A program made the position numbers and the translations under genes. Source: Bacillota bacterium (lineage in GTDB: Bacteria > Bacillota > Limnochordia > DTU087 > JAAYGB01). Taken from it: 64,000 bases of DNA. Below the pieces are notes generated by a model. The model saw only the letters and a list, made by a program, of their open reading frames with translations, had not been told where the DNA came from and did not search any database. This document shows, piece by piece, positions 21,738-47,047 of this stretch. The first letter of the stretch is position 1; every line of letters starts with the position of its first letter. Where the stretch lies: contig JAAYGB010000053.1 in assembly GCA_012727955.1 (NCBI GenBank), positions 589 to 64,588 of the forward strand, in the 5' to 3' direction.

Positions 21738-22154
21738 CTATTTGGCTATGTTTAGTCCCTCGATTGCCGGGGCAGTCCGACTCTGCGGGTCCTTGCCCAA
21801 GGCCTCCCAGGTATCCCGCAACTCCTCTAACATTCCAATCACTTCATCGACAGGCTCTACTTCCTTCTGGATATTAGCCTGCACCAACCGCTGATCCATG
21901 TAGTCATACAACTGCCCCAGACTATCGGCAATTTCCCCACCGGCCTCCCGATTCAGGGAGAGACTCAACTCGGTAATGATGTCCTGGGCCTTAATCAAGG
22001 CACGATGAGCAGGCTCCACCTGCTTCTCCTCTAACGCAACTCGAGCTTGCTTCAGGAAGGTAATCGCGCCGTTGTAGAGCAGAATGATCAGCTCTAGACC
22101 CGAAGCTGTCGTGATTTGAGTCTGCCGATACGCTTGATAGGGATTGGGTTTCAT
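21738..22154 (-). CDS. fliS: flagellar export chaperone FliS
   Basis: NPYQAYRQTQITTAS N-terminus; 138 aa. Confidence 0.8.
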   Translation of the reverse strand: MKPNPYQAYRQTQITTASGLELIILLYNGAITFLKQARVALEEKQVEPAHRALIKAQDIITELSLSLNREAGGEIADSLGQLYDYMDQRLVQANIQKEVEPVDEVIGMLEELRDTWEALGKDPQSRTAPAIEGLNIAK

Positions 22155-22194
22155 CTATCTGCACTCCTTAGCCCCTGTTTACACCAAACAAACA

Positions 22195-22575
22195 TTAGGC
22201 TCTCTCATCGATAAACAATCCGATTAACTGATCAATCCTCCGGGATACCTCCAAAGCCGCCTCCGGCGGAATCTGTCGGATCACCTCTTGGGTTCTGGTA
22301 TCAATGACTTTCACCAGGAGTTGCTCCATCTCATGATCCAGTTCAAAACTCAGCCGCTTGTGGAAGGTATCCGCGGTCTCGTTGAGTCTTTTAATGACTT
22401 CCCGCACCTTGTCCAGATCTAGATAATACTCTGGATGCTCCAAATTCTCCCCGTTGACCTCTTCTGCCCGTTTTTCCGAGGCAGCCATCGTCTTACTGCG
22501 TTCGCTAATCGGTGAAACTGATGTCATGCGAGCTAATGGCTCAACTCCAACTCTAGTAACCTCCATGTAAGTCAT
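22195..22575 (-). CDS. flaG: flagellar protein FlaG
   Basis: C-terminal pattern ..VKVIDTRTQEVIRQIPPEAALEVSRRIDQLIGLFID typical of FlaG. The N-terminal boundary is uncertain. Confidence 0.65.
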   Translation of the reverse strand: MTYMEVTRVGVEPLARMTSVSPISERSKTMAASEKRAEEVNGENLEHPEYYLDLDKVREVIKRLNETADTFHKRLSFELDHEMEQLLVKVIDTRTQEVIRQIPPEAALEVSRRIDQLIGLFIDERA

Positions 22576-22707: not shown

Positions 22708-23913
22708 CTAGGCTCCCACGGAGGGGTGATGGGCAAACCGCTGGGCCCGAAGCAGGTACAGGGTCAATCCCGCCGCAACGAGGCCGATGATGCCCACGGT
22801 GACAAACCCGCCGGTCAGTCCCAGACTATCACCGATGGCCCCAACTAGAACGGGACCTCCAAACATCCCTAGGGAATAGATTGACTGGAAAAAGCCCATG
22901 GCGGTGGCCCGCTTCGAATTATCAATATAGCGAATGCTGAGGCCCATCAGGAGCGGGAAAATCACACCTCTCCCGAAGCCTGCCAATGCCTGGGTTACAA
23001 ACAGACCCGTTACCGTCTGGCAGAAGGGAATCATCAGCGTGAAAACCGATACCAGCAAAAATCCTGCCGCCACCACCCGCTGGGTGCCAAACCGCTGGGC
23101 CCAGTCTCCGCTTTTGAGGGAGGTAATCGCCGCCGGCAACAGCTGCACCAAAGACAAAATGCTCAGCTGGCTCTTCGACGCCCCAATTCCCATGGCATAA
23201 ACGGGTGTAAAGCCGTGCAAAGTAGAGAAATTCAGCACCTGTACCAAAATCGCTAAGAAGGCTGCGCTTAACAGTATTCTATCGCTGCCAACTTGCAGAA
23301 GCTCCTTAACCTCGATGGGCTGAGATTGGGCCTCCCGATTTTCCCGAATTCCGGCACTGAGAACCAGACCCACCATACCTACCAAACCACCGATGACAAA
23401 GGGAGCGGTCCATCCCAAATAATCCGCGGCAAATCCACCAAAGGTGGTGGCCACCATTTGCCCGATGGAGGAATAGAAGGTGATTACCCCCATCGCCCTT
23501 GGAGCCTCCTCCGGCGAAAAGTAGCTGGAATACAACACCGTAAAGGCTACCCAGGTGGCCGCCGCGGCTCCCGCTAAGGAACGACAAACCAGGACCAACC
23601 AGGGATTGTTAACCAGGCCCATACCCACGGAGCTGATCACTCCCAGGGCCACACCGATACTGACAAAAATTTTACGCCGTCGCAACCGGTCGGAATAGAT
23701 CCCCAGGGGAATTCGCAGCAGCATCTGGGTAAAGCCATAGGATCCCACCACTAGGCCCACCATTTTCAGTGAACCCCCCAGATGTTCCACATAGGGGCCG
23801 AGAATCGGAGCGTACATGTAAATTGAGCACCAATATAAGATGGTAACGGCGTAGATTAGCTTGATCTTCCTGTCCCTGCGCAAGTCACTGGTCAACTCTG
23901 ATATCCTCCCCAT
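22708..23913 (-). CDS. MFS transporter
   Basis: 401 aa with 12 predicted transmembrane segments. Confidence 0.8.
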   Translation of the reverse strand: MGRISELTSDLRRDRKIKLIYAVTILYWCSIYMYAPILGPYVEHLGGSLKMVGLVVGSYGFTQMLLRIPLGIYSDRLRRRKIFVSIGVALGVISSVGMGLVNNPWLVLVCRSLAGAAAATWVAFTVLYSSYFSPEEAPRAMGVITFYSSIGQMVATTFGGFAADYLGWTAPFVIGGLVGMVGLVLSAGIRENREAQSQPIEVKELLQVGSDRILLSAAFLAILVQVLNFSTLHGFTPVYAMGIGASKSQLSILSLVQLLPAAITSLKSGDWAQRFGTQRVVAAGFLLVSVFTLMIPFCQTVTGLFVTQALAGFGRGVIFPLLMGLSIRYIDNSKRATAMGFFQSIYSLGMFGGPVLVGAIGDSLGLTGGFVTVGIIGLVAAGLTLYLLRAQRFAHHPSVGA

Positions 23914-23990
23914 ATTTTCACTGAATCACAATCGGTGGGTTGTCTCCACCAACATCCTCTACTTACACACCGGACCCGGCTTTTCCTTGG

Positions 23991-24518
23991 CTACGGCCAG
24001 GGAAGGCCAAAATCTAGCCCGAAATCTCCCAGCACCACTAGGATTGCTCCTGCCGCCAAGAAGGGCCCATAGGGAATGGTGTCCCGCCGCTGCTTTCGCT
24101 TGGTTACCAACAACCAACCCCCCGCCAGACCTCCCAGCAAGGTCCCCAAGAGCAAGGCCGTCAGCGTCTGGCGCCAGCCTAGGAAGGCTCCGATGAGGCC
24201 CATCAGCTTGACATCGCCCCAACCGATGCCGCCCCGAGACACTGCCGCCAAGGTCCCCATGATGGTAACCGCCAAACTCCAGCCTCCCAGTCCACTCCAG
24301 AAAGAGGCTGTCAGCCACCAGCGGCAGGCCAGTCCCACCACCGTTCCCGAGAGGGTGAGGCGATTGGGCAGCAGACCGGTGCGCAGATCCTCCAGCGACA
24401 ATACCACCAGCCACGACAGCAACAGGGCATAGATGGCTGCCGCCGGTGTCATCCCATACCGCCACCGAACTGCCAACCACAACCCACAGTGCAACACCGC
24501 CACCGTCCACCGAGTCAT
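23991..24518 (-). CDS. short A24-family prepilin peptidase (TadV/CpaA-like, lacking the N-terminal Zn-finger/methyltransferase domains)
   Basis: 175 aa polytopic membrane protein with the conserved Asp-containing segments ..LSLEDLRTGLLPNRLTL.. and ..GGIGWGDVKLMGLIGAFLGW.. diagnostic of A24 peptidases. The overlapping 207-aa ORF in another frame is Gly/Ala-rich noise. Confidence 0.7.
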   Translation of the reverse strand: MTRWTVAVLHCGLWLAVRWRYGMTPAAAIYALLLSWLVVLSLEDLRTGLLPNRLTLSGTVVGLACRWWLTASFWSGLGGWSLAVTIMGTLAAVSRGGIGWGDVKLMGLIGAFLGWRQTLTALLLGTLLGGLAGGWLLVTKRKQRRDTIPYGPFLAAGAILVVLGDFGLDFGLPWP

Positions 24519-24591
24519 TAAGGCACCTCCACCACTCTGGGGACACAGCCGGAGTGAACCCTGGAGCTATATAGTTTTTCACATTGGGGGG

Positions 24592-26010
24592 TCATTGTCC
24601 TGCCCCAGGGCTGCTAAGGAAGAAGCGAAGGCCTAGCTGCCAGTTCCAGGCATCTTCCTGACCAGGACGCTGATACCAGCGGGAATAGATGTCCATTGTG
24701 GGCCAAACCTGCAGACGAGCAACCACAACATGAAGGGGATGGTCGGAAGAAAGCCTGTCCACTGTGTATCCCAGGCTGAGGGCTTGGCCCTGCAGCTCAA
24801 CTCCGGCACTCCAGCGGCTGCCATCAAACTCCATCGAGGAATCCCGATACCAAAGGGGCAACCAGGTCGCCACCAGATAGACGCTTTCTGCGACTTCGGT
24901 GCGATCGGTAAGGCCCAACCACCAAGCGGTTTCCTCCCTGCGGGTTACGCCAGCAGTGAGCTGCAATTGATCCTGCAGCCCAGTATGCAATTGCACCTGG
25001 GACAATCCCCTTGTCCGGTGGGAAATCCGCAGTTGGTTGTTGTCTCCTAAGAAAGCGGTTAGAGACCAAGCCTTAGCGCCATCGCCGGTGTCAAAGCCCA
25101 TCTCTACCGCTGCCAGCTCCCGAGAAGGAGACGATGCAGGCTCCTGCAAAAGAGCCTGTAACCCTTGGAGATCACCGGCAAGCCTCACATCGGAAGGGAC
25201 CGATGGTCTGCCCTGGGATTGAACAGGATGCATCTCAGCGGTGAGATAGCAGAGAAAAACCTCCCTTGAGTTATCACCTTGTCGGGAGGTTAGCCCATCC
25301 TGAGCACGCAAGGAGGCAAGATCTAACAGGGCCACCGCCGTGGGTTGTCCCAGAGGCAGCTTGACTTCAGTGATCAGGCTGGCTTTCTGGCCGGAGAGAT
25401 CCCGAGCCACCAGCTTCATTGAGGTCAATAGGCCATCTAGGGTAACCTGGGTCGGTGTGAGGGTGATGCCCAGTTCCCCCTCTCCCTCCCTTCGACCTAG
25501 GCCCAATTGCCGGTGATTGATGGATACCGGCGTGCCAACCACCGTGGACATCCAAGCGGAATGGGTGGTGGTTCCAGTTTCAAAACCTTCTACTAGCTCT
25601 TCAGGAACTTTCAAGATGACGGCGGAACCCACCTCCACCGGCAGAGGAAGGGGAAGGCTAAGCCGACGATAATCTCTCTCATCGACGCGAAGAAATTCGA
25701 GGGTAAAGCGAACAACGGCCACAGCCCTGGGATCCATCTCCCCGGCGACTAGGGCATCAATTTGCTCCAGCAGCGGTCCGGGCCCCGTCACCAGGATCAG
25801 CCCTGACCCGTGGTCCCATGAGACTTCCACGGGATATTCCGCCACTTGAGCCAAGACCCAGGCAAACTTGCCTCCTGGCACCCGATACACCGCGGTCTGG
25901 TGGTTGAGACCTTCGCGCTGCATAGATACTTCCGAGGCCTCGACCCAACCTGGACCCACCCCTAAGAGTCCAACCAACAAGAGAATCGTCCACAACCGCC
26001 AATATCCCAT
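24592..26010 (-). CDS. signal-peptide outer-membrane protein with a secretin-N-like N-terminal region and a beta-rich C-terminal half (secretin partner?)
   Basis: Signal peptide MGYWRLWTILLLVGLLGVGPGWVEA. The N-terminal ~200 aa resemble secretin N0/N1 modules (..VEVSWDHGSGLILVTGPGPLLEQIDALV..). The C-terminal half has alternating beta-strand character and is aromatic-rich near the end. The ATG follows the secretin TAG stop by 3 nt, in the same frame. Confidence 0.5.
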   Translation of the reverse strand: MGYWRLWTILLLVGLLGVGPGWVEASEVSMQREGLNHQTAVYRVPGGKFAWVLAQVAEYPVEVSWDHGSGLILVTGPGPLLEQIDALVAGEMDPRAVAVVRFTLEFLRVDERDYRRLSLPLPLPVEVGSAVILKVPEELVEGFETGTTTHSAWMSTVVGTPVSINHRQLGLGRREGEGELGITLTPTQVTLDGLLTSMKLVARDLSGQKASLITEVKLPLGQPTAVALLDLASLRAQDGLTSRQGDNSREVFLCYLTAEMHPVQSQGRPSVPSDVRLAGDLQGLQALLQEPASSPSRELAAVEMGFDTGDGAKAWSLTAFLGDNNQLRISHRTRGLSQVQLHTGLQDQLQLTAGVTRREETAWWLGLTDRTEVAESVYLVATWLPLWYRDSSMEFDGSRWSAGVELQGQALSLGYTVDRLSSDHPLHVVVARLQVWPTMDIYSRWYQRPGQEDAWNWQLGLRFFLSSPGAGQ

Positions 26011-26013
26011 AGG

Positions 26014-27234
26014 CTACTTAAGCTCCTCGGCACTGATAAACACCAACAGCTCCCGATCACTGGAAGAATTTGCCGTGGACTTAAGAAGCCACCGGATCAC
26101 TGGAAGGCTCCCTAGGATGGGAACCTTGGCGTCCTTGGTCATGGTGTTTTCCACCGTCAATCCCGACAGGGCTACCACCTCACCGTCGGTGACCTTCAGG
26201 GTTGTTTGCACCTGGTTCTGATACACCGTTGGATCATCCTTCACTTCCGAAATGTGGCTGATCTCCGGGGCAATCTCCAGGAGAATCACTCCCCCTTCCA
26301 GGGCTGTAGGGGTAACCGTCAACCTGACCCCGGCCTCAACGCTTTGATAGCGATGGGTTCCATCGTCGGTTTGCCTGGTGACTAATCTGGTCTCGCCACT
26401 GAATAGAGAGGCTTGCTTACCCTCAGCAACTATGAGGGTGGGATCGGCGTGGATGGCCGCTTCATTTTTCTCCTCCAAAGCAGAAAAGAGGGCAACAATC
26501 CGCTCAAAGGGATCTCTGTATTCCAATCCTACCAAACCGCTTTGAAGCTGCAGCGATGTTGACCAGATCCGGTCCCACAGCCCCTCATCCTTAGAACCAG
26601 TTACCTCAAGGGAGTTGATCCCCCACTGCTGCAAGGTAGCGGTGGCCACCTCGGTGATCAGAGCTCGAATCCGGTATTGGGTGACGGGACGGGGCCGATC
26701 GATCTTGTCAATAAGGGCGGTGATCCGCTGGGCTATGTCCGGGGGAGCAGTCACCAACAGCAGCGATTCCTCCCGGGAAAAGCTGAGGTATTGATCGGCA
26801 TAGGCGGGAAGCAGCTCCCGGGCAGTAGCCGCGGAAATGTGTTTTAGCGAGATAACCCTGGTGTCCACTAGACTGGAAAAGGCCCGATTATAGGGATCGG
26901 GAAGACCAACCAGGTAGAAGTTGCCGTAGTTGCGATAGGCATACCCTCCCGGCAGACACAACATCTGAATAACAGTCTCTAGTGGAACCTGGTCGACGGT
27001 CAAGGTGACAAACCCCTGAACAGTCTCATCGACTAGGATATTGATACCCGTCTGCAGTGCCAGCTCATTGAAGGCCTCCCGCAAGTCCATCTCATAGAAC
27101 ATCACACTGACCAAGGGGGAGGTCATCGGCTCCTGGGCCCAGGAGGCTCCGGCGACCATCACCGCTGTTACCCCAAGGACTAAGAAGAAAATCCAGAAAA
27201 TCGAATTGTACAGAACTCGCAGTTGTTTCACCAT
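26014..27234 (-). CDS. short secretin (GspD/PilQ/RcpA family)
   Basis: Start at the internal ATG (MVKQLRVLYNSIFWIFFLVLGVTAVMVAGASWA signal peptide) with an AGGAG RBS 5 nt upstream. One secretin-N domain (DLREAFNELALQTGINILVDETVQGFVTLTVDQVPLE..). C-terminal secretin domain (..VTDGEVVALSGLTVENTMTKDAKVPILGSLPVIRWLLKS...RELLVFISAE). Confidence 0.8.
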   Translation of the reverse strand: MVKQLRVLYNSIFWIFFLVLGVTAVMVAGASWAQEPMTSPLVSVMFYEMDLREAFNELALQTGINILVDETVQGFVTLTVDQVPLETVIQMLCLPGGYAYRNYGNFYLVGLPDPYNRAFSSLVDTRVISLKHISAATARELLPAYADQYLSFSREESLLLVTAPPDIAQRITALIDKIDRPRPVTQYRIRALITEVATATLQQWGINSLEVTGSKDEGLWDRIWSTSLQLQSGLVGLEYRDPFERIVALFSALEEKNEAAIHADPTLIVAEGKQASLFSGETRLVTRQTDDGTHRYQSVEAGVRLTVTPTALEGGVILLEIAPEISHISEVKDDPTVYQNQVQTTLKVTDGEVVALSGLTVENTMTKDAKVPILGSLPVIRWLLKSTANSSSDRELLVFISAEELK

Positions 27235-27294
27235 CAATTCTCCTTGCCTACCCTCCATCTTCTTGGCAGGCTCATGTAGAGCTTTTGGAACAAA

Positions 27295-28536
27295 CTAGTT
27301 TGCTGTCTCATGCCCAACGAAAACCTCAATTGGTATCCTCTGTTCCTCTAAGACTTCCGTTAAGGTCTGGTCGGTATAGACAATTACTTTTGCCACACCC
27401 CGATAGTGCCCAAAGACAGCATTGGGAGGAATCTGGATGGACAACACTATTCGATTGGGATGGGTCGAGCGCAGTGGTAGCAGTTCGGGACCGTAGACCG
27501 TCACAAAGTCCGCCACCGACAAGGGACCTCCCTCTGGCAGTGATTCAAGCTTTACCTGGGCATACAAGGGCCGTGGACTCAGGTTAGTAATGGTGAGGGG
27601 TTCCATTTGCCGCTGCCTTGGCCTAAGTCTAGCTTCGATTGCCTCTCGATCCAAGGTAATATACTGTCCCGCAACGGCCTGTTGAGATAGATCGGAGTCA
27701 TCATATTGGATGTTGATCGATTGGTTGATGACTCCCTGTCCCCGCTCCGCATACTGCAACAGGGCCCGCAAATGGTATGTACCAGGGGCCAGTGGCCGGC
27801 GGGGACTTCCGGTATAAAGAACCTTAGCACCGGGATAGATCCGAGTTGCATCCTCATTGTTTTGATGCCCCACCAGGGTACGCAGAGCCAATCTTTCAAC
27901 GAGTCGATGATTTTCGTCCCGAATGGTCAACTCAACGGTGGCGGGATAGTCTTGACTCGATGGGTTACTCACCTGCGCGACAAACACGGGATCACCGGCC
28001 TCATCCTGCTCCAGTCTGAGAAAGTCCAGATTGGCTCGAGGAAGATCCGCTGGTCCCGGCACTCGAATCACCACTCGAACGGCGTACCGAATCCGCAATC
28101 CCCCAGGCGGCAACCCGCCAACGGGTTGCGGTTCCACCATGATGATGAGAACGTGACTTCCAGAGACACCAAAGGGCACACTAACCTGCACCTCTATCTC
28201 GCTGGGCTGGTTACCGGCAACCCGCAGAGGCTGAGAAGGAAGCTTGACCCACCGACTGGCAGGAAAGGATTCAGGGTCCCCCTGTTCGAAGGCAAAGCTC
28301 CCGGTGGGCAGCTGCACTGGCCGATAGATGCTGAGATGAATCAACTCTTCTTCACCCGTTGGAGTCAACCTCAAAGTAAAACGAGCAGATTGCCCCGGTC
28401 GCAGATCGAAATCCACGGCAAGGGGCTGCACACCGACACCAAGAGCTACCTCACAAAGAACAAGTACGAAAAACACCGAAAGGATTAGCCCGCACCGATA
28501 CTTAGCTGATCTCACTGCCATCACTCCGGTTCCCAT
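27295..28536 (-). CDS. bitopic/secreted protein with repeated Ig-like beta-sandwich domains (unknown function)
   Basis: N-terminal signal/anchor (..CGLILSVFFVLVLCEVALG). About 380 aa of beta-rich sequence with recurring V/I-x-V and P-G patterns. No recognisable motif. Confidence 0.5.
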   Translation of the reverse strand: MGTGVMAVRSAKYRCGLILSVFFVLVLCEVALGVGVQPLAVDFDLRPGQSARFTLRLTPTGEEELIHLSIYRPVQLPTGSFAFEQGDPESFPASRWVKLPSQPLRVAGNQPSEIEVQVSVPFGVSGSHVLIIMVEPQPVGGLPPGGLRIRYAVRVVIRVPGPADLPRANLDFLRLEQDEAGDPVFVAQVSNPSSQDYPATVELTIRDENHRLVERLALRTLVGHQNNEDATRIYPGAKVLYTGSPRRPLAPGTYHLRALLQYAERGQGVINQSINIQYDDSDLSQQAVAGQYITLDREAIEARLRPRQRQMEPLTITNLSPRPLYAQVKLESLPEGGPLSVADFVTVYGPELLPLRSTHPNRIVLSIQIPPNAVFGHYRGVAKVIVYTDQTLTEVLEEQRIPIEVFVGHETAN

Positions 28537-28552
28537 TGCTGCAACCTCGGAT

Positions 28553-28585
28553 TACTAACAAAAGCGCGGCTTGAAAAAGCCGCGT
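28553..28585 (-). terminator. intra-operon stem-loop terminator/attenuator after the 182-aa gene
   Basis: The minus strand reads GCGGCTTtttcAAGCCGCGC followed by TTTTGTTAGT. Confidence 0.55.
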
Positions 28586-28641
28586 AGTTGTCGCAGTATA
28601 TTGCTGTTTTCACCATCGCTCCCTTGGTTCCTTCAGCGCCG

Positions 28642-29190
28642 CTACTGGGTGATGGCGTTGCTGGCAGCCACTGTAATGATCACCTGGGCATTGTAATTAC
28701 CCGCAGGTTGGTCAGAAATCTCGCGTAATTTAGCCATTGCCGAAATTGTATAATCTACTTTTCCGTCGGACCAATCTTGTGCGGCTTCGCTGGTTCTTGT
28801 GTCTCTGTCCTCATCAGTGTTGAGCTCCATAGCCCAGATATCATCGACACTTGTCCGCGTGATAAGATATCTTACTGGAATGTAGGGGCCCTTTTCGGTA
28901 GAGGTGTAATTGTCGATCTTTCGCAAGGGTTCGGCGCTGACAGTCAGATCAATGGAATGATTGGTTTCTACGGTAAAGGAGACTTTGTCAGACTGCTCTT
29001 CACCTTCTTTACCGATAAAGGTGAATGCAAGACCCTTGTTAGGCTCTGGCTTAACCGCTGCGTATTGTCCAACCCCAGCTGTAACTTCGATAGTTGCAGT
29101 TTTCGGGTCAGTTGGCTGCTCAGCCAAGCCAGTACCTCCAATCGACAATACCATTGCCAGCGCTAAGATCAAACCAATCAATTTTCTCAT
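28642..29190 (-). CDS. small secreted beta-rich protein (candidate fibre/structural subunit)
   Basis: Strong AGGGAGGG RBS. Signal/anchor MRKLIGLILALAMVLSIGGTGLA. The mature ~155 aa are T/V/E-rich with a C-terminal G-N-Y-N-A-Q-V-I-I-T-V motif reminiscent of donor-strand/fimbrial-type subunits. It is followed by a terminator. Confidence 0.5.
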   Translation of the reverse strand: MRKLIGLILALAMVLSIGGTGLAEQPTDPKTATIEVTAGVGQYAAVKPEPNKGLAFTFIGKEGEEQSDKVSFTVETNHSIDLTVSAEPLRKIDNYTSTEKGPYIPVRYLITRTSVDDIWAMELNTDEDRDTRTSEAAQDWSDGKVDYTISAMAKLREISDQPAGNYNAQVIITVAASNAITQ

Positions 29191-29233
29191 TGCTTATTGC
29201 CCTCCCTGTTTTGCCATGCCATATGTAAGTCAA

Positions 29234-30121
29234 CTATTGTCCAGGGTCAACGAGGGAAAAGTTGATGCGACCCTGTTCATACCTCCCTGCCGGGTCCGTT
29301 AGTACCGACTTAAGGTACAAATAGACCGTTATCGACGCGTTGTTTTTCTTGGAATTTCTAATCAGATACAATCCCTCATCGCCAATGGGTTGAGGCTCCT
29401 GATGCTCTCCCACAGCCAGTAATAACCGATCTCGGGGGATACTTGGAGCTTTACCCGACGGAGAGCTTTCCGGTCCCTGGTACACCAAGGGCTCTCCGGT
29501 CACTTTTAGGTGCCAACCGGTGTAGTTGGTGGTTACCTCCACCTGAACCGCCTGAGCTAGGGGATATACTCCCGGTCCTCCGTCCGCGCTAAAGGCCACC
29601 TGGGTAGGAGTTACCTGGATTTGACTGACCTTCGGAGTTCCCAGCCAAAGGCGAATCTCCGGTAGTCCCTTTTCCATGTTTTGGTGGGACAGGCGCAGGA
29701 GGAATTGGTATTCCCTTGCCGTCTCTCCCGGGGTGGATTCCAGTCGAAATCGAACCTGTTGCCTTTGGGGTTGACCGTTGTTGAGTTGGATATGGAAGTC
29801 CTGTCCCAGGGAAAACTCCCGAAAGGGAGCTCCCCTCACTGCGGCCAGCAACAGCGAAGTAGGGGAAGAGGAAGTTATCTCCTCCAAGCGATACTTGAAA
29901 TTGTAGCTGCCATCACCGAGGCGGAGAAAAGTGAGGATTACTTCGTCGCCCCCGGAAGTGACTTCCAAATCGATACCCAATCGCTCGTCCCGGTAAGCCC
30001 ACTGCAGCTCGCCGCCTCCTTCTCCCAAGGGGGAGATTGGTCCACCGGCTGCCGCCGCGACTGTTCCGATTAGGCACCAGATTGCCGCTAGAGCTATTAA
30101 TTTCATGTAGCCCATGCGCAC
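29234..30121 (-). CDS. secreted/bitopic protein (unknown function), first gene of the secretin operon
   Basis: Start placed at the GTG 9 nt after the AGGGAGG RBS, giving MRMGYMKLIALAAIWCLIGTVAAAAGG (signal/anchor) followed by a beta-rich mature domain. A ~290-nt AT-richer promoter region lies upstream. Confidence 0.5.
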   Translation of the reverse strand: MRMGYMKLIALAAIWCLIGTVAAAAGGPISPLGEGGGELQWAYRDERLGIDLEVTSGGDEVILTFLRLGDGSYNFKYRLEEITSSSPTSLLLAAVRGAPFREFSLGQDFHIQLNNGQPQRQQVRFRLESTPGETAREYQFLLRLSHQNMEKGLPEIRLWLGTPKVSQIQVTPTQVAFSADGGPGVYPLAQAVQVEVTTNYTGWHLKVTGEPLVYQGPESSPSGKAPSIPRDRLLLAVGEHQEPQPIGDEGLYLIRNSKKNNASITVYLYLKSVLTDPAGRYEQGRINFSLVDPGQ

Positions 30122-30442
30122 ATTGCTTGTCCTCCCTGGGAAATGCCTCACCCCATCGGTTTCACCCGTCCCGAAAATAGGTCTATCCGCATCCAGCTAG
30201 TCTGCTTAGCAAATTCACACCCATTGTATGATCCGCATCTCGTTTAAATCTCGATTTTGCCTTCTTCTTCCTGGAATTTCACCGGAAATGAAAATATGAA
30301 TGGCCAGTACTACTGGGACCACTACAAGGAAAGACCCAATAGTATCCAGAAAGATTCCAGAAGGATAAGATAGGTTAGATGATTCTGACTAAACTCGTTC
30401 CTACACTGCCCATTTGGCAAAACCTAAATTAGGAGGCTTTTC

Positions 30443-31438
30443 ATGGAATACAGGAGGTTAGGTAATTCCGATTTGATCGTTTCCCGTATCTGCATGGGAT
30501 GTATGGGCTTTGGCAGCCCAGCAGCAGGTCAACACAGCTGGACGCTGGGAGAAGAGGAAAGCCGGGAAATCATTAAGCGTGGGCTTGATCTAGGTGTGAA
30601 TTTCTTTGATACCGCGATTGTGTACCAGGGGGGTACCAGTGAGCAGTATCTTGGTAGGGCGTTGCGAGATTTTGCCCGGAGGGATGAGGTCGTTGTGGCC
30701 ACCAAATTCCCACCCCGCAGCCGGGAGCAAATCGCAGCGGGAATCGGTGGACAGAAACATATTGAAACTATGCTTAACCGAAGTCTAGAAAACCTCGGTA
30801 TGGATTACGTAGATTTATATATCTATCACATGTGGGACTTTCACACTCCCCTGTATGAGATTATGGAGGGCTTAAACAACGCAGTTAAATCCGGAAAAGC
30901 GCGTTATATCGGCATCTCTAATTGCTATGCCTATCAGCTGGCAAAGGCAAATGCTCTAGCGGAAAGGGAGGGCTTTCCGAAATTCGTGGCGGTGCAGGGA
31001 CACTACAATCTCATTTTCCGGGAAGAGGAACGGGAAATGGCCCTTCTCTGTGAGGAGGACAATATTGCAATGACTCCCTACAGCCCATTGGCCGGTGGGC
31101 GGCTGTCTAAGCATCCCGGTGAGACCTCCAAGCGGTTTGAGGAGGACTCCTACGCAAGGTCTAAGTATGACGCCACGGCAGAACAGGACGCGGTAATCAT
31201 CAGCCGGGTAGCAGAGCTAGCTGAAAGGCACGGCGTTTCCATGACGGAAGTAGCTCTGGCTTGGCTGTTGACAAAAACCACGTCTCCGGTGGTGGGAGTC
31301 ACCAAGGTGCATCATATTGAGGGTGCCGTCAAGGCCCTGGATCTGAAACTAACCGATGAGGAGCTTGCCTATTTGGAGGAACCCTATGTACCCCATAGAT
31401 TGGTGGGCGTTATGGCAGAGCTACGCCAGCAGCGGTAA
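30443..31438 (+). CDS. aldo/keto reductase
   Basis: MEYRRLGNSDLIVSRICMGCMGFG and the NFFDTA motif. AGGAGG RBS (aattaggaggcttttcATG). Confidence 0.85.
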   Translation: MEYRRLGNSDLIVSRICMGCMGFGSPAAGQHSWTLGEEESREIIKRGLDLGVNFFDTAIVYQGGTSEQYLGRALRDFARRDEVVVATKFPPRSREQIAAGIGGQKHIETMLNRSLENLGMDYVDLYIYHMWDFHTPLYEIMEGLNNAVKSGKARYIGISNCYAYQLAKANALAEREGFPKFVAVQGHYNLIFREEEREMALLCEEDNIAMTPYSPLAGGRLSKHPGETSKRFEEDSYARSKYDATAEQDAVIISRVAELAERHGVSMTEVALAWLLTKTTSPVVGVTKVHHIEGAVKALDLKLTDEELAYLEEPYVPHRLVGVMAELRQQR

Positions 31439-32570
31439 TCTCCTGCCACTGCAGAGTTGCAATGGTGCCAATCACCTTGGGAGAGAGCCAGCGTTGAATC
31501 CGCCGGGCAATAGCGCGGCGTTGGTCCAGGGATGTTCCATAGAGCAGGACGTAGAGGGTATCCAGTCTTCTGTGGGTGATGACATCCCCCCGCCTCAGTT
31601 CCTGCCTGAGGTTATCTACCAGTGTCTCCATATCTTGAGAGGCCAAAGGTTGGGCCATTTTCACCGTCAATAATATGGACTTTCCTTCCTGCCGGGACAA
31701 GCGACGAATCTCTACTTCACAAATACTGCGGAATACCTCATAGCGGCACACCATAGCCCCTGCTTCAATCTGTGCCGAACTCAGCAAATCCCTTAAGTCT
31801 CCACCTTGATCATCGAGATCCTCAACGATCTGTCTAACCCGAACCGACGGTGGAATCCCCAGCTCATCCTCCATTACCTTCTCATAGTGGCGATAAAGAT
31901 GAATGGCCTCACTCAGGTTATTTTGCGCTGCAAGGATCTCCAGTCCCAGTATGTAGAAATCCTCACGGAAGCGATCCTCGCCAATCCCCCTCTTGAGCTG
32001 TGTCAGGGCCCTGGCTGACTCTCCCTGCTGCTGCAGTATCCCAGCCAACCGCAGGAGCATGTCCAGGAACATGTCTCGATAGGTTTGCCGATGGGTTTCC
32101 GTCCAATCTTGATAAATGTCGCTGGGTAGTAAGGGCCCACGATAAGGCTCAATACCCCTTTCCAACAAGGAACGCTCTTCCTCGGGAGATTCCCAGGTTC
32201 TGAACTTGAACACCCGATGATAATGCTCTTCAAACTCTCTCCAGTCAAACCAGTACTGTTTTTGGGGATTTAGGCTGTATCGGGTAACCCCTTTGACGAT
32301 GTAGGTATCGGCACCGGGGACGTCGATGATGCTTCTCAAGCGATAGACGGTATCGTATAGACGCCTTTTGCCCTTTTCCTCATCGATTTCCGGCCACAGT
32401 ATCTCGATTAGGGTATCATCGGCCACGGCATGCCCAGGGTAAAGCAGCAAATACTTGAACATGTCCAGTGCCTTTTTCGATGTCCAGTCCTGTTCGGAGA
32501 GTACCCGGTTTCCGATTTCAACGCGAAATTGACCAAATCCGTAGACTTTGAGAAGGTTTTGGCCCTGCAA
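31410..32570 (-). CDS. SARP-family (OmpR-type winged helix + BTAD) transcriptional regulator with a C-terminal degenerate GGDEF-like segment
   Basis: N-terminus LKVYGFGQFRVEIGNRVLSEQDWTSKKALDMFKYLLLYPGHAVADDTLIEILWPE is a SARP/DnrI-type winged helix. The middle region is BTAD/TPR-like. The C-terminal ~110 aa (..SILLTVKM...RRGDVITHRRLDTLYVLLYGTSLDQRRAIARRIQ) aligns with the central part of GGDEF domains but has no GG(D/E)EF motif. Confidence 0.55.
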   Translation of the reverse strand: MQGQNLLKVYGFGQFRVEIGNRVLSEQDWTSKKALDMFKYLLLYPGHAVADDTLIEILWPEIDEEKGKRRLYDTVYRLRSIIDVPGADTYIVKGVTRYSLNPQKQYWFDWREFEEHYHRVFKFRTWESPEEERSLLERGIEPYRGPLLPSDIYQDWTETHRQTYRDMFLDMLLRLAGILQQQGESARALTQLKRGIGEDRFREDFYILGLEILAAQNNLSEAIHLYRHYEKVMEDELGIPPSVRVRQIVEDLDDQGGDLRDLLSSAQIEAGAMVCRYEVFRSICEVEIRRLSRQEGKSILLTVKMAQPLASQDMETLVDNLRQELRRGDVITHRRLDTLYVLLYGTSLDQRRAIARRIQRWLSPKVIGTIATLQWQEITAAGVALP

Positions 32571-32694
32571 ATTGCTCCCCTCCCGTTACCCCTTCGACCT
32601 AGTATGACTCCATCACGCCGGACAGTCCCTGTAAATCCTAAATAAAAAACTACCGCACCGCGGTAGTGGCAAATAATAGCAAGATAGAACTATA

Positions 32695-32952
32695 TCACTG
32701 TTCCTGTTCCCCGGAAGGGGATCTTCCCGGTAACAGTTCATCCAGCTGCTTAATGTCCAACTCCCGCTGGGCCAGGGCAGCTCGCCGATTTTCTGCTTGA
32801 ATCTCTCGGTATACCTCTTCGCGGTGAACTGTGATTGATCGGGGAGCATCTATTCCAATCTTGACTTGGTCGCCCCGCACCTCAACCACGATAATCTTTA
32901 CATCATCGCCAATAATAATGCTTTCATCGACCTTCCTGGTCAAAACTAACAT
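32695..32952 (-). CDS. csrA: carbon storage regulator CsrA
   Basis: [48 protein letters not shown]. Confidence 0.9.
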
Positions 32953-32991
32953 AGAAAGTCCCTCCTTGGACTTTTTCCGTCGGATAAAGTA

Positions 32992-33438
32992 TTATGCCGA
33001 GCGGGTGTCTTCCTTGGGTGGAAATACTCGATGCCGAGTAGTATACTCATCACCGGTTAACACTACTTGTTTTCCCTTCCTGGTCTTGGGGTTGATTACC
33101 AACGGCCCCTGCAGGTTAGCGGTCATCAACCTGACCTCCGACGGTACGGTGACAATGGCCAGAACCGCTGCCTCCGCGTCAGACTCAATCCCCAGGTCCG
33201 CCACTTCCTCCTGGGCCAACTTCACCCGGTAATCCGGCCAAACTGCCGTGGGGTCAAGGACCACAAAGGCCAAATCGGGATCCTCTGCACTCTGTAAGTA
33301 GCTAAAGGGACTCTTGCCATCGAAGTTCAGGAGGATGTAATCCCGCAGGTGTTCAAAGCCTAGTATGCCCCGTTCGAAGGTGATGATATCGCTGGGGTCA
33401 ACTTCAAGGTTTCCAAACCTGGTGGTGGTAATTTCCAT
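32992..33438 (-). CDS. fliW: flagellar assembly factor FliW
   Basis: 148 aa with a FliW pattern (..RFGNLEVDPSDIITFERGILGFEHL..). Confidence 0.85.
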   Translation of the reverse strand: MEITTTRFGNLEVDPSDIITFERGILGFEHLRDYILLNFDGKSPFSYLQSAEDPDLAFVVLDPTAVWPDYRVKLAQEEVADLGIESDAEAAVLAIVTVPSEVRLMTANLQGPLVINPKTRKGKQVVLTGDEYTTRHRVFPPKEDTRSA

Positions 33439-33450
33439 TCTTTCACCTCC

Positions 33451-34014
33451 TCAGATGATGATATCTATGAATCGCCCCACGACCTCAATCTCAATCTCTG
33501 GTCTGGGGTCGACTTCCAATTGTACGGTTCCCGGAGTGTAGGTAATCTGAGGTGCCTGGGTAGAGGCAGTAACTTCCAGCTGCGGATCGGTGAAGTCTAC
33601 CCAGATGTCGCCGGAAAAGGAAATTTCCGGAGGATGCTTGGGCACCGCATCAACATTGACTTCAGGGGCTGGAGCCATGGCTTCCTTTCCCATTTCAGCC
33701 AAGATGTTGGCTCCTGTACCAAGGCTTTGGGCCATCCGATCTCCATTCCTGGCCCAACGGGCGATTCCCTCGGTGCTTTTGATCCACCCGACGTCGGCTT
33801 GCTCCCCTTGAAAAAGCTCCGGGGTTTTCAAGCCCATGTCGGCGTGGGCCTTGGTCAGGTCAATCTCCACTTGCACAGCTTCGGAGCTTACCCTCAGCTG
33901 TGCTGGCTCCTGCCGCACCGCCACTTGAGGGAGCGAGGTACGAATCTCTAGCTGTGCCGGATGCTGCTGTAGGGCCAGCCGTCCCCAAGTCTGAGATATC
34001 TCCAGTCGTACCAC
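33451..34014 (-). CDS. YviE-like flagellar-operon protein (DUF6470-like)
   Basis: Lies between flgL and fliW, as yviE does in Bacillus. 187 aa; the pairing with YviE is inferred from synteny and sequence style. Confidence 0.45.
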   Translation of the reverse strand: MVRLEISQTWGRLALQQHPAQLEIRTSLPQVAVRQEPAQLRVSSEAVQVEIDLTKAHADMGLKTPELFQGEQADVGWIKSTEGIARWARNGDRMAQSLGTGANILAEMGKEAMAPAPEVNVDAVPKHPPEISFSGDIWVDFTDPQLEVTASTQAPQITYTPGTVQLEVDPRPEIEIEVVGRFIDIII

Positions 34015-34071
34015 AGCAGTCTCCCTCCCCTGCCCGCAAGTTTGACAAGTAGTGGCTAAAACAACTTCAGA

Positions 34072-35004
34072 CTAACGGAGAAAGTCCATCAAAGTCGGTT
34101 GGATAATCCTTGCCCCCGAGCTCAATGCTAAGTAGTAGGCATTTTCTTCCATCTTCAGATTCATGATAGTCTCGGCTACATCAATATCCTGAACCTTAGA
34201 CAGTAAAGTTCGAGTGCTGAGCTCCAAATCCTTTAGCCTGGTGGCCGTTACTTCCAACCGCTTAACTTTGGCTCCGGCCTCCGAGCGACTGCGCAGGGCA
34301 TCGTCGATGGCCACATCAAATTGTGAAAGGGTGGCATTGACGTCACCATCTGCGTTGGTCAACGCGTGGTTCAACTGGAGCAAGGCACTCATGGCAGTGG
34401 TAAAGGCATCATCACCGCCGATACGAAAGTCCAAGGTAATCCCTACCCCAATCTCAATGCCAGAACCCTGGACCGAGGCAAGTTTGCCTAGGTAGGTGTC
34501 ATCAATTACGCCGTCGACACTGATCAGTTCTCTTTCCAGAAAGAGAATATTACCATCCTTATCCAACTGGAAGGGCGCCGTATCGGTTTTGGCATAACCG
34601 AACATATACTCATCGGCAAAGGTGCTGTTGCCGATCTGGATGACGTGGTCGAGAAGCTGTTGAACCTCATCGGCGATGGCCGCCCGGGCCCTTTCGTCCA
34701 AAGCCCCGTTACTACCCTGCACCGCTAATTCCCGACCCCGCTGGAGCACTTCTCCCAGTTCTGCCAATGCCGAGTCTGCGGTCTCTAAGTATCCGATTCC
34801 CCGATCCACATTGGATAGATGCTGCTCAATTTCCCTCCGGTTGGCAGTGTACTTGAGGACGTTGGTAATTCCTACGGGATCATCGGAGGGCCGCAGGATC
34901 TTCTTCCCCGAGGCCAGCTGCTCATTGGTTCTGCTTAACCGCCTGAGATTCCCCTGTAGGTTGCTCAGGGAATGGTTCACCAGCATTTTATTGGTAATTC
35001 GCAC
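34072..35004 (-). CDS. flgL: flagellar hook-associated protein FlgL (HAP3)
   Basis: MRITNKMLVNHSLSNLQGNLRRLSRTNEQLASGKKILRPSDDP N-terminus and the conserved C-terminal helix. GTG start after an AGGTGA RBS. Confidence 0.8.
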   Translation of the reverse strand: MRITNKMLVNHSLSNLQGNLRRLSRTNEQLASGKKILRPSDDPVGITNVLKYTANRREIEQHLSNVDRGIGYLETADSALAELGEVLQRGRELAVQGSNGALDERARAAIADEVQQLLDHVIQIGNSTFADEYMFGYAKTDTAPFQLDKDGNILFLERELISVDGVIDDTYLGKLASVQGSGIEIGVGITLDFRIGGDDAFTTAMSALLQLNHALTNADGDVNATLSQFDVAIDDALRSRSEAGAKVKRLEVTATRLKDLELSTRTLLSKVQDIDVAETIMNLKMEENAYYLALSSGARIIQPTLMDFLR

Positions 35005-35013
35005 CTAAATTCA

Positions 35014-35232
35014 CCTGCCTATTAATCCCATCCGATTGATAATCACATCTAAGATTTCATCCACCGCGGTTACTAGTCTCGCCGCAGCACTGTAAGCATG
35101 CTGATACTGAATCATGTGAGCGATTTCCTCATCCAGGGACACGCCGGAGACCGCTTCCTTTTGATTCTCCAGGTGCTCCATCAACACCCTTTGGTTATCG
35201 GAGATCCGAATGGCCTGCTGGGTATCGGCTCC
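35014..35232 (-). other. flgK: 73 in-frame codons that encode the conserved FlgK C-terminus, separated from the flgK ORF by a single TAG
   Basis: In the same frame, directly after the TAG at 35233-35235, the sequence reads GADTQQAIRISDNQRVLMEHLENQKEAVSGVSLDEEIAHMIQYQHAYSAAARLVTAVDEILDVIINRMGLIGR and then TGA, 6 nt before flgL. This is the canonical FlgK C-terminal D0 helix. Confidence 0.7.
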
Positions 35233-36465
35233 CTATTCTCCCATAATCCCAGCGTAGAAGTCCGAGGAAATGTTGGCAGTATGCTGCAAGTTGATGATCT
35301 CCAAAAGATTTTGGTTATCTCCCGGACCACTGTCGGGATCGGTGCCTCCCACCGTGGGAGCACTGGCAGCGGCAATGGCATCGAGACTATCAAGAATGTC
35401 CTTGGATAGAGTAATTACCTCCGCGGCACCCCGGGGATCGTCTTCGTCAATGACAAAGAAGTCGATAGGTTTTCGGCCCTCAATCCCATAGGTGTCGCCT
35501 AAGCCATATCCCTTGTTGTGAACCTCGTTAATCTCATGGGCTAGGGCTTTAGCGAAGTTATCCAGGTGTTCCTTATATTTGGGGATATAGTGGTCCCGCA
35601 GTTCCAGAAGGCCCTTGATGGCTCCATCGGTAATTTGCGGTGTAACCTCTCCCTGACCTTCCCACCGCAGCTGAGGCATCTCCCCTTGCTCGGTAGCGGG
35701 AATCACCTCTAGGCGACGAACCGTCGCATAGTCTACTAGGGTGCTGCCGCCGATGCTGATGGTAATGGAAGCGTTGGGCTGTTCCCGGACGCTGATGTTA
35801 GTGAGCTGACTTAGCTCGAAAATCAACTGGTCCCGTTGATCCAATAGGTCGTTGGGATTGTCCCCGGTAACCGAAATGGCCACAATTCGCTGGTTCAGAT
35901 CGGCAATTTGTTCGGCCAATTGGTTAACGGTGCCGATCTTTACCGCCAGCTCCGCGTTGAGCTCCTGCTGGTACTCACGGGTCTGCCGGGCTACGTGGTT
36001 GAAGGAATCCGTCAACAGCGCAGCACTTTGTCTGACCACTGCGCGAGCCGAGGCATCATCGGGGCGTTGGCTCAAGGTCTGCAGTGCCTGGAAGAACTCA
36101 TCTAAAGCCATACTGATCCCGCTCTCCGATGGCTCGTTGAAAATCATCTCCAGCTTTTCCAAGCCCGCCTGAATCGTTTGCCATTGGCCGGTGGTGGCGT
36201 TTTCCGTTCTCAGCTGGGTTTCTACGAACTGATCCCGCACCCGCTGGATCGCGCCTACTTGCACTCCCGTGCCAATTTGCCCCGGCGAAATTGGCCGATT
36301 CAGTCCCGGAACGGTATAGGGATTATTCGGTGTCAGCACTACCCTTTGCCGGGAATATCCCGGGGTATTGGCATTGGCGATGTTATGTCCGGTAATATCC
36401 AAACCCGCCTGTTGGGCTCTCATTCCGCTTAACCCAACGTAGATTCCTGAAAAGGTCGATCTCAT
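35233..36465 (-). CDS. flgK: flagellar hook-associated protein FlgK (HAP1), N-terminal 410 codons ending at an in-frame TAG
   Basis: MRSTFSGIYVGLSGMRAQQAGLDITGHNIANANTPGYSRQRVV N-terminus. The ORF stops at a TAG, although the conserved C-terminus continues in frame. Confidence 0.8.
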   Translation of the reverse strand: MRSTFSGIYVGLSGMRAQQAGLDITGHNIANANTPGYSRQRVVLTPNNPYTVPGLNRPISPGQIGTGVQVGAIQRVRDQFVETQLRTENATTGQWQTIQAGLEKLEMIFNEPSESGISMALDEFFQALQTLSQRPDDASARAVVRQSAALLTDSFNHVARQTREYQQELNAELAVKIGTVNQLAEQIADLNQRIVAISVTGDNPNDLLDQRDQLIFELSQLTNISVREQPNASITISIGGSTLVDYATVRRLEVIPATEQGEMPQLRWEGQGEVTPQITDGAIKGLLELRDHYIPKYKEHLDNFAKALAHEINEVHNKGYGLGDTYGIEGRKPIDFFVIDEDDPRGAAEVITLSKDILDSLDAIAAASAPTVGGTDPDSGPGDNQNLLEIINLQHTANISSDFYAGIMGE

Positions 36466-36538
36466 GTCAAATCCCCACTCCTTCTTCCCATGGCCCTGCC
36501 CGCTGGCTTAAACCAGCCGGTGATGAGCCCCCTTCGGC

Positions 36539-37084
36539 CTAGGCCTTGGCATCAAGTACACGGGCTGCAGTCTTCTGAACTCCCTTGCCCTCTCCCGGCT
36601 TTCCGTAGGTGGCAGCCTCTTCCTCTCCCCCGGTGAGAACTTCTAGGGAGAAGTTGACCAAGGCCAAGGAATGAAGCAACAGCCGATGGTTGAACTCCAT
36701 GGTCTCTTTTATCTCGGTAACTAGAGTAGTAAGTTGTGTTTGCAACTCCTCTAGCCTCTCATTCCAGGGCGCCGGAGCCAGGGAGATAAAATCCCCCAAG
36801 GTCAGCTCAATCCGTTGCCCTGTTAAGTCCGCCGCCTGCTGCTCCAAGGCGGTAATCAGTCGATGCCTTTGCTCTTCGATTCCTTCTAGCTCTTGGGCCT
36901 TAGCTGCCTCCTGCAGGGCAATCCTCTCCAGGGTAACGGGATCGTCCTGAGTAAGGGCTTCGGTTTTGGCCTGCCCCAGTTGCACTAGGTCTGCTAATAC
37001 CTCAACTTGTTGGGATAAAATATCAGCCAGTGTGGTATACACCTGGCTGTCCTTTGTTGTTGCTAAATGCCGATTATATTCCAT
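36539..37084 (-). CDS. flgN: flagellar protein FlgN-like chaperone
   Basis: Lies between flgM and flgK; 181 aa, helical and Q/E/L-rich. Confidence 0.6.
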   Translation of the reverse strand: MEYNRHLATTKDSQVYTTLADILSQQVEVLADLVQLGQAKTEALTQDDPVTLERIALQEAAKAQELEGIEEQRHRLITALEQQAADLTGQRIELTLGDFISLAPAPWNERLEELQTQLTTLVTEIKETMEFNHRLLLHSLALVNFSLEVLTGGEEEAATYGKPGEGKGVQKTAARVLDAKA

Positions 37085-37521: not shown

Positions 37522-37956
37522 TCATCGATCCTGCCTACGAATGATGGCAGCCTTGCTGTGGAAGCGCTCCCGCTTCGACGGGGGATCTCCTTTCCCTACC
37601 GTCGGTTCGGATTTCCCTTGGGATTGGAATTGGGGTTGAGACCGGCCCAAGTCTCTTCTCATGGCAGCAAGACACTTGGTACAGAACCTTCCACTGGCAA
37701 TCAAGTCACCGCAGGACTGGCACTGCAATTCCGGTCGAGACAAAATCAGCCGACCTTCCCGCACAAATTGATTGATTTGTTCCACCGGTACCTCGGTGGC
37801 AATGCTGGTCTCAGCCACCGTAGCTCCGGGATTTTTCCGGATGTAATCCCGCACTATTTCAAATTCCTCTTGCTCCCGTTGTAAACAGCGGGGACAGATC
37901 CGCGAACCCCTCGAGCTAAAGACGACGCCACAGCGATTACAATTCCGTAGACTCAT
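37522..37956 (-). CDS. yvyF: flagellar operon zinc-ribbon protein (YvyF/TIGR03826-like)
   Basis: N-terminal CNRCG...CPRC and a second C..C pair. Lies immediately upstream of flgM, as in Bacillus, and overlaps the comFC stop by 4 nt. Confidence 0.65.
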   Translation of the reverse strand: MSLRNCNRCGVVFSSRGSRICPRCLQREQEEFEIVRDYIRKNPGATVAETSIATEVPVEQINQFVREGRLILSRPELQCQSCGDLIASGRFCTKCLAAMRRDLGRSQPQFQSQGKSEPTVGKGDPPSKRERFHSKAAIIRRQDR

Positions 37957-46919: not shown

Positions 46920-47047
46920 TGCCAACACCTCCCCCTTTGACCGGTAGTGTCAATACTTCCCCGCCTTCCCTGCGGTACCTGCCGTAGGCGCTGTTTGCTA
47001 AAAACAAAACTCGCCACACCGATGGCGAGCACCAAAGTTGGAAGAAT

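Follow-up and report, generated by a model that had tools for sequence, protein, structure and literature searches.

The question raised by the locus described here is how a secretin could serve a bacterial envelope when no motor is encoded beside it. The locus occupies positions 23991-30151, on the minus strand, of a 64,000-nucleotide stretch of Bacillota DNA (contig JAAYGB010000053.1, positions 589 to 64,588), which is referred to below as the window. To our knowledge, every characterised secretin is paired with an ATP-driven machine of the inner membrane: the type II secretion system (T2SS), the type IV pilus (T4P), the tight adherence (Tad) pilus, the type III secretion system or the filamentous phage apparatus. 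The characterised outer-membrane routes for donor-strand pili that are known to us all use an usher. A secretin that operates with usher-type subunits and without a motor would break both rules. The answer proposed here, to which a probability of about one half is assigned, is that the locus encodes a Sec-fed, ATP-independent “chaperone-secretin” pathway that builds a donor-strand fibre. On computational evidence drawn from metagenome-assembled genomes (MAGs), the module is regarded as a new kind of system, because the block lacks what defines type IV filament, chaperone-usher and WxL systems. In the literature, no description was found of DUF4402, nor of a secretin paired with donor-strand, chaperone-usher or SCPU subunits.

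A Block of Secreted Proteins Conserved across Lineages

The block consists of six open reading frames (ORFs) that run in one direction and are separated, in gene order, by 43, 105, 36-60, 3 and 73 nt. This bears out the co-directional, closely spaced arrangement described in an initial annotation of this DNA. In order, the genes encode a two-domain secreted protein (A305), a 182-aa β-sandwich protein, a protein with several immunoglobulin (Ig)-like domains (C413), a short secretin, a divergent paralogue of that secretin (E472) and an A24 prepilin peptidase. Just two of the six products, the secretin and the peptidase, are named by Pfam and NCBIfam. The window proteins have identical counterparts in a biogas MAG (NLV92545-NLV92548). 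In the existing annotation, NLV92546 and NLV92548 are hypothetical and the other two bear generic names (secretion-system protein and prepilin peptidase). Read from the sequence, the first five proteins of the block have N-termini of the Sec type, for signal peptidase I, and none of the five carries a class III signal of the G/FTLIE type, as the initial annotation had also found. The conserved components possess signal peptides and no further membrane segments.

Related loci were collected from the contexts of secretin orthologues, from a metagenome scan and from a scan of GTDB genomes with a family alignment. A scan of genome contigs with the 413-aa protein alone gave no match, while the family alignment succeeded; a word-indexed homology search with the 182-aa protein also gave none. 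The remote subunit matches P0029 and P0022 lie on contigs too short to be included in the neighbourhoods. About 30 loci were obtained from 17 lineages of uncultured Bacillota. The named sources are Halothermothrix sp. DTU029, MAGs of the Halanaerobiaceae and Halanaerobiales and several Bacillota MAGs from anaerobic digesters and biogas, together with three more MAGs labelled uncultured Bacilli, Peptococcaceae and Clostridia. The relatives had been expected to be Negativicutes-like; they are instead Halanaerobiales and unclassified Bacillota. The block proteins recur at 25-47% identity across the 17 lineages and at different chromosomal sites, and the gene arrangement is therefore not due to chance.

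The conserved families were defined by BLAST and by clustering of all ORFs in the loci. Small subunits are encoded in 16 of the 17 lineages, with one to three copies per locus, and C413 likewise in 16. The secretin and E472 genes occur together in 16 lineages and are always adjacent, with the E472 gene directly 3′ of the secretin gene. Orthologues of A305 are found in eight lineages, always immediately ahead of the subunit genes, and homologues of a BTAD-type regulator encoded at 31410-32570 in the window adjoin the module in six. No other family recurs in these loci. The genes are arranged in one of two orders, A305-subunit-subunit-C413-secretin-E472 or secretin-E472-A305-subunit-subunit-C413. 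The module probably comprises five of the six block genes, with the peptidase excluded.

Subunits with a Pilin-Like Fold

The 182-aa protein (28642-29190, minus strand) is a small, secreted, DUF4402-like β-sandwich and the candidate major subunit of the fibre. It is rare, with 21 relatives found by a HMMER search that covered 1.84 billion representatives. In an alignment of the protein and its relatives, 11 of 20 members match the Pfam family DUF4402 at E ≤ 1 (best 1.1e-5), and SCPU is matched by one subunit homologue taken from the loci. Two motifs are common to the family: a strand-like “I.V.A.VG.YA” directly after the signal peptide and a C-terminal “IS.Q.AG.Y.G.I.LTVSA”.

An AlphaFold2 model built from the protein and its relatives is all-β (pLDDT 83.3, pTM 0.71) and has no N-terminal pilin helix apart from the signal peptide. 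Its structural matches include CfaB, CsuA/B, CS17, CooA, the pilin domains of PapG and FimH, CssB, the SCPU pilin of CupE, EcpD, Caf1 and an archaeal bundling pilin. The matches obtained independently with Foldseek were CfaB (6e-5), CanX, CS17, CanA, TasA, CupB6, FimG, CsuE and PapE. On the basis of these matches, the modelled fold is assigned to the subunits of donor-strand-exchange fibres. The claim that the locus lacks pilins therefore needs to be divided: it holds for type IV pilins, but pilin-like proteins of the donor-strand type are present. In profile searches of the Protein Data Bank (PDB), no significant match was obtained with the family of the subunit, E472 or A305.

The protein encoded ahead of the subunit, A305 (29234-30151 or 29234-30121, minus strand), is 305, 295 or 293 aa long depending on the start codon. 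Its residues 161-293 belong to the small-subunit family (hhalign probability 95%, E = 2.9e-8), and its N-terminal β domain also finishes in an “aG.Y..L” motif. No match to A305 was found in Pfam or among PDB sequences. Judged from its sequence, this two-domain layout resembles that of the tip adhesins CfaE, FimH and CsuE.

A stem-loop had been reported after the 182-aa gene, and it was located as a GC-rich, terminator-like hairpin at 28584-28565 on the minus strand, between the 182-aa and 413-aa genes. It reads CGCGGCTT-TTTC-AAGCCGCG, followed by CTTTTG. The stem comprises 8 bp, of which 6 are GC, and with its T-rich tail the element is a candidate attenuator or stabiliser of the mRNA. Nearly every locus, the window and at least 12 others among them, has a strong GC-rich hairpin behind a small-subunit gene; the sequences differ, and in most loci it stands between the last subunit gene and C413. 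Examples are found in L026 (9880-9949), L011 (9856-9990), L017 (9907-9994), L018 (8860-8901) and L022 (9888-9940). In the fim and pap operons, a comparable arrangement yields an excess of the major pilin.

A Distant WxLIP Homologue

C413 (27295-28536, minus strand; 413 aa) is a secreted multi-Ig protein with a WxLIP-like N-terminal module and is considered a candidate periplasmic chaperone or adaptor. The window protein by itself has no Pfam match. At the level of the family, the profile matches the PDB structures of EfmWxLIP1 (9i25 and 9i1y) with E = 1.7e-6, and the Pfam family WxLIP_PGBD (formerly DUF916) matches six of 13 members (best 1.9e-5), while WxLIP_HBD matches one of 13. Genuine WxLIPs from Enterococcus, Lactococcus, Listeria, Melissococcus, Lactiplantibacillus and Bacillus plasmids were used for comparison. 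C413 aligns with these over 259 columns that span both DUF916 and DUF3324 (hhalign probability 95.6%, E = 1.1e-8). By the sequence comparisons of these three methods, C413 is a distant homologue of WxLIP. It has a signal peptide, as noted, and the C-terminal membrane helix is absent. The window protein contains one extra Ig-like domain and most orthologues contain two, of the Ig, CARDB or NEW3-like kind.

In the WxL clusters of Gram-positive bacteria, AlphaFold predicts that a hairpin of WxLIP completes the β-sandwich of the WxL protein as a donated strand (PMC10599100). Such predicted donation of a strand is chaperone-like behaviour.

The same homology supports the strongest of the alternatives, in which C413 and the DUF4402-like proteins form a non-polymeric surface complex, a counterpart in double-membraned (diderm) cells of the WxL/Csc system, and are exported through the secretin as adhesins or polysaccharide binders. 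This alternative is regarded as rather unlikely. It is favoured by the similarity of C413 to WxLIP over both domains, by the order of small β-sandwich genes followed by WxLIP, which is also that of the Enterococcus, Listeria and Bacillus WxL clusters, and by the extra domains of C413, which are typical of surface proteins. Other evidence speaks for polymerisation. The top structural matches of the subunits are to polymerising fibre subunits, and the hairpin implies that one subunit is made in excess, in the manner of a major pilin. The mean column identity of C413 (47%) exceeds that of the subunits (23%), as would be expected of machinery more than of an exposed adhesin. It was also considered whether the subunits are homologues of the WxL domain, and this was rejected: the hhalign probability is 4%, with just the “G.Y..l.w.L” motif of the last strand aligning, and no WxL match in Pfam was found among 27 and 20 sequences of the subunit family.

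The Secretin and Its Paralogue

The outer-membrane component of the proposed chaperone-secretin pathway is a short secretin (26014-27258 or 26014-27234, minus strand; 414 or 406 aa) in which N0 and one N domain precede the secretin domain. It matches PF00263 with E = 2.6e-35 (121.9 bits, cutoff 27.5) and Secretin_N with 1e-6 (29.3 bits, cutoff 28.2), which agrees with its earlier description as a secretin that has one N domain; the match to N0/STN is weak. The protein aligns over its full length with PHROG 1012, which represents protein IV (pIV) of phage M13 (E = 1.3e-41), and its PDB matches are GspD (1.7e-21), RcpA (2.2e-15) and pIV (1.4e-11), as well as PilQ. It has no S domain, and its architecture is that of the phage pIV. 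The orthologues, of 388-426 aa and 34-47% identity, form a distinct group. A search with the secretin returned four of these orthologues, of 394-419 aa, and then just remote T2SS and T4P secretins at no more than 26% identity.

In the metagenome contig L012 (5207-6399), two ORFs make up the secretin, which is intact in the near-identical MAG L025 (5207-6400); the split is probably a frameshift of assembly or sequencing. Several genes of the L001 contig, from the species of the window, are similarly fragmented.

The adjacent gene encodes E472 (24592-26010, minus strand; 472 aa), whose N-terminal half had been read as N0/N1 modules of a secretin. An N1-like module is indeed present, and aligns with secretin N domains at a probability of 99.4%. 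The protein holds more than this, however. Residues 92-285 align with the whole secretin C-domain (hhalign probability 96.1%, E = 2.9e-9), and the C-terminal domain is β-rich and unrelated. All six control comparisons with unrelated families (C413 and the subunits) remained below 1%. These alignments identify E472 as a secretin paralogue with a degenerate secretin core.

The E472 orthologues of L026 (12704-14299) and L010 (5539-7134) have an additional N0 domain (Pfam STN, 7.6e-7). In L004, of the same lineage as L026, the N0/N1 module of the orthologue is 32% identical to the adjacent secretin, and the full module has been lost from E472 in most other lineages. This suggests that E472 arose by tandem duplication of the secretin, followed by stepwise reduction. 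The C-terminal stretch of about 190 residues has no match, is rich in β-strand patterns and ends in “GL...F”. Judged by these patterns, the domain looks like an outer-membrane barrel inserted by the β-barrel assembly machinery (BAM). A single-sequence AlphaFold prediction of E472 reached a pLDDT of 35 and was discarded.

Absence of a Linked Motor

The window was read for ORFs of at least 150 aa throughout and of at least 120 aa around the locus. In this reading, no ATPase of the T2SSE type (GspE/PilB/TadA), no platform protein and no type IV pilin was found in the 64 kb, nor was a small Flp-like ORF seen upstream of the block. The flanks of the related loci were covered for up to 10 kb per locus, and 13 of the 17 lineages have extended flanks of several kb. 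Within these available flanks, no T2SSE Walker motif is present in any of the 17 lineages. The P-loop proteins encoded near the module are of assorted ABC transporter, FtsH and FeoB types, with no recurring family. Nor does any family of membrane proteins recur in the flanks, and T2SSF is not annotated in the loci that have Pfam calls. The absence of ATPase and platform that the initial annotation had reported for the window extends to the flanks covered in the relatives. The next-nearest secretins served as controls: P0006 adjoins T2SSE, T2SSF, an N-methyl pilin and an A24 peptidase, and P0012 adjoins Flp, A24, TadE and RcpC.

The sixth gene of the block encodes an A24 prepilin peptidase of the size of TadV/CpaA (23991-24518, minus strand; 175 aa). 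Its identity was confirmed (Pfam Peptidase_A24, E = 5.7e-18), but its membership in the module was not: no homologue of it is found in the loci of the other 16 lineages. Since it is confined to the lineage of the window, the peptidase is likely not a part of the module, and probably lies outside it as judged from this distribution.

These observations bear on a second alternative, by which the block supplies the outer-membrane and periplasmic components for an ordinary T2SS, T4P or Tad machine whose motor and pilins are encoded elsewhere, with the DUF4402-like proteins as its cargo or accessories. It is considered improbable. The functional-looking peptidase directly behind the block would suit such a machine, as would the genes for ComFA and ComFC in the same window, the restriction of flank coverage to 10 kb or less per locus and the established coupling of secretins to an inner-membrane motor. 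The peptidase is however missing from the loci of the other lineages, and the ATPase, platform and type IV pilin are unlinked in all of them, while the nearest other secretins have theirs alongside. The module proteins lack class III signals and any resemblance to PilM/N/O/P or GspC. An assignment of the block proteins as PilNOP or GspC was rejected on the Pfam and NCBIfam searches; the accessory proteins are of the donor-strand type and the WxLIP-like Ig type. The layout had been described as unlike pilMNOPQ, rcp-tad, gsp and comG, and both the relatives and the accessory proteins agree with this. In none of the 17 lineages does the block lie within a Tad, T4P or T2SS locus, as far as the available flanks extend. 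Furthermore, a type IV pilus locus with a PilQ homologue of its own is conserved in the Halanaerobiales and Negativicutes (PMC5007114).

That the secretin is the remnant of a filamentous prophage, with unrelated neighbours, is effectively refuted in spite of its full-length match to PHROG 1012: the remaining block proteins match no PHROG, no Zot/pI ATPase, coat or replication genes lie in the flanks, and the block is kept as a unit in 17 lineages at differing chromosomal sites.

The Proposed Assembly Pathway

The simplest model for this set of parts is a pathway like that of chaperone and usher, with a secretin in the place of the usher. In the chaperone-secretin pathway proposed here, passage of all five proteins through Sec is shown by their signal peptides. 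Because the components are free of any further anchor, the module is placed wholly outside the inner membrane, where it cannot draw on ATP directly. The cargo would be the 182-aa subunit and the 305-aa protein, which have the incomplete Ig fold of chaperone-usher, TasA and cannula fibres, as seen in a confident model, and a presumed capacity to polymerise. C413 would be soluble in the periplasm and could hold the subunits by lending them a β-strand, similar to what is predicted for WxLIP and WxL. The outer-membrane channel would be formed by the pIV-like secretin and its paralogue E472; the family of both is established by the comparisons above, and their invariant adjacency points to a partnership. 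E472 may be anchored through its small BAM-type barrel. The folding of the subunits and strand exchange could supply the energy, by analogy with the chaperone-usher pathway, and such a source would account for the lack of an ATPase. The hairpin after the subunit gene would provide for an excess of subunit over machinery. The likely role of the product is that of an adhesion or biofilm fibre, under the control of a regulator with BTAD and GGDEF-like domains.

Several points weigh against this pathway. Donor-strand exchange and the chaperone activity of C413 are inferred steps. In the secretins known so far, it is an ATP-driven piston or filament that opens the gate, and we know of no ATP-independent secretin. 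The ATPase and platform may be encoded beyond the flanks of up to 10 kb, and the A24 peptidase adjoins the block in the window, where co-transcription is possible. The window 182-aa protein scores 14.1 bits against DUF4402 (PF14352), below the cutoff of 25.2. The TM-scores of its model to known pilins are a modest 0.35-0.47, and β-sandwich folds are common. Finally, every source is a MAG and all of the evidence is computational.

If the pathway is correct, it represents a new route of pilus assembly or secretion and the first case of a secretin working independently of ATP, which raises the question of how a secretin gate is opened in the absence of a piston. It would also provide a concrete role for the poorly understood WxLIP (DUF916/DUF3324) and DUF4402 families.

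Regulation and Genomic Surroundings

The candidate regulator of the module (31410-32570, minus strand) contains Trans_reg_C, BTAD (Pfam, 8.1e-18) and GGDEF-like domains. In two lineages, a protein with EAL and HDOD domains (Pfam EAL 3.3e-16, HDOD 1.3e-19) is encoded directly 3′ of the module, in L031 (14177-15385) and L015 (13212-14420). Together with the GGDEF-like tail of the regulator, this suggests control by cyclic-di-GMP and regulation of a biofilm type. An Rfam scan of positions 23000-33000 found no riboswitch or other RNA family.

The block, with an aldo-keto reductase, the regulator, the A24 peptidase and a major facilitator superfamily gene, is flanked by late flagellar genes (21738-22575 and 32613-37084). 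On one side these encode FlgN, FlgK, FlgL, FliW and CsrA, and on the opposite side FlaG and FliS. Many Firmicutes carry flagellin and fliD at such a late flagellar position; neither gene was seen between the late flagellar genes of the window.

Genes for ComFC-like, ComFA-like helicase and RecD2-like proteins are located at 37953-38726, 42805-44667 and 44712-46928 of the window. They suggest a competence or DNA-uptake apparatus with its pilus genes elsewhere, which the lone A24 peptidase may serve. At 7972-8700, a secreted protein of 242 aa with alternating β-strand patterns and the C-terminus “...VFRF” resembles a small barrel of the outer membrane, in keeping with a double-membraned host.

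Comparison with Known Systems

The module shares with the T2SS, T4P and Tad systems and with pIV export a genuine secretin, in a short domain layout like that of pIV or RcpA. It differs from all of these in having no linked GspE, PilB, TadA or Zot ATPase, no platform, no type IV pilin and no PilMNOP, GspC or RcpC. Among the donor-strand fibres made without chaperone and usher, the TasA/TapA fibres and the Pam pili of the candidate phyla radiation (CPR) are found in bacteria with a single membrane, and the bundling pili and the Pyrodictium cannulae (CanA/CanX) in archaea. Unlike the module, none of these systems has a secretin or an outer membrane to cross.

The chaperone-usher systems, in particular class 5 (CFA/I) and the archaic SCPU type (Csu/CupE), are similar in more respects. 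As in these, the subunits are Sec-exported, pilin-like β-sandwiches, and a two-domain protein resembling a tip adhesin and a periplasmic Ig-domain protein are encoded beside them. The module likewise has no inner-membrane or cytoplasmic parts, and a hairpin follows the gene of the major subunit. Given this lack of inner-membrane and cytoplasmic components, assembly would be ATP-independent. The differences lie in the identity of the parts. No module protein matches the usher (PF00577) or the PapD-like chaperone (PF00345/PF02753); the Ig protein matches WxLIP instead. The outer-membrane part is a secretin with its paralogue, the candidate chaperone is of the WxLIP family and the hosts are double-membraned Firmicutes.

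With the WxL/Csc systems of Lactobacillales, Listeria and Bacillus, the module has in common a WxLIP homologue and genes for small secreted β-sandwich proteins directly upstream of it. In the Gram-positive clusters L035 (3626-8454), L037 (1545-5888) and L041 (1-4879), the order is a large or two-domain surface protein, small β-sandwich proteins and then WxLIP. The module differs in lacking WxL domains, LPXTG proteins and a membrane anchor on its WxLIP-like protein, which carries the additional one or two Ig domains. It possesses the secretin pair, and its hosts encode secretins and barrels like those of outer-membrane proteins.

A wider reading can tentatively be drawn from these comparisons, at somewhat less than even odds. 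By this reading, the module represents a new class of fibre assembly or secretion, with a WxLIP-family chaperone, donor-strand pilins, a heteromeric secretin and no ATPase, and the Gram-positive WxL/Csc clusters are its relatives or its descendants in cells that have no outer membrane. The surface-protein clusters of lactic acid bacteria and Listeria are thereby tied to a machine of diderm Firmicutes, which bears on the loss of the outer membrane. If true, this would constitute a new molecular trace of the transition from diderm to monoderm cells within the Firmicutes.

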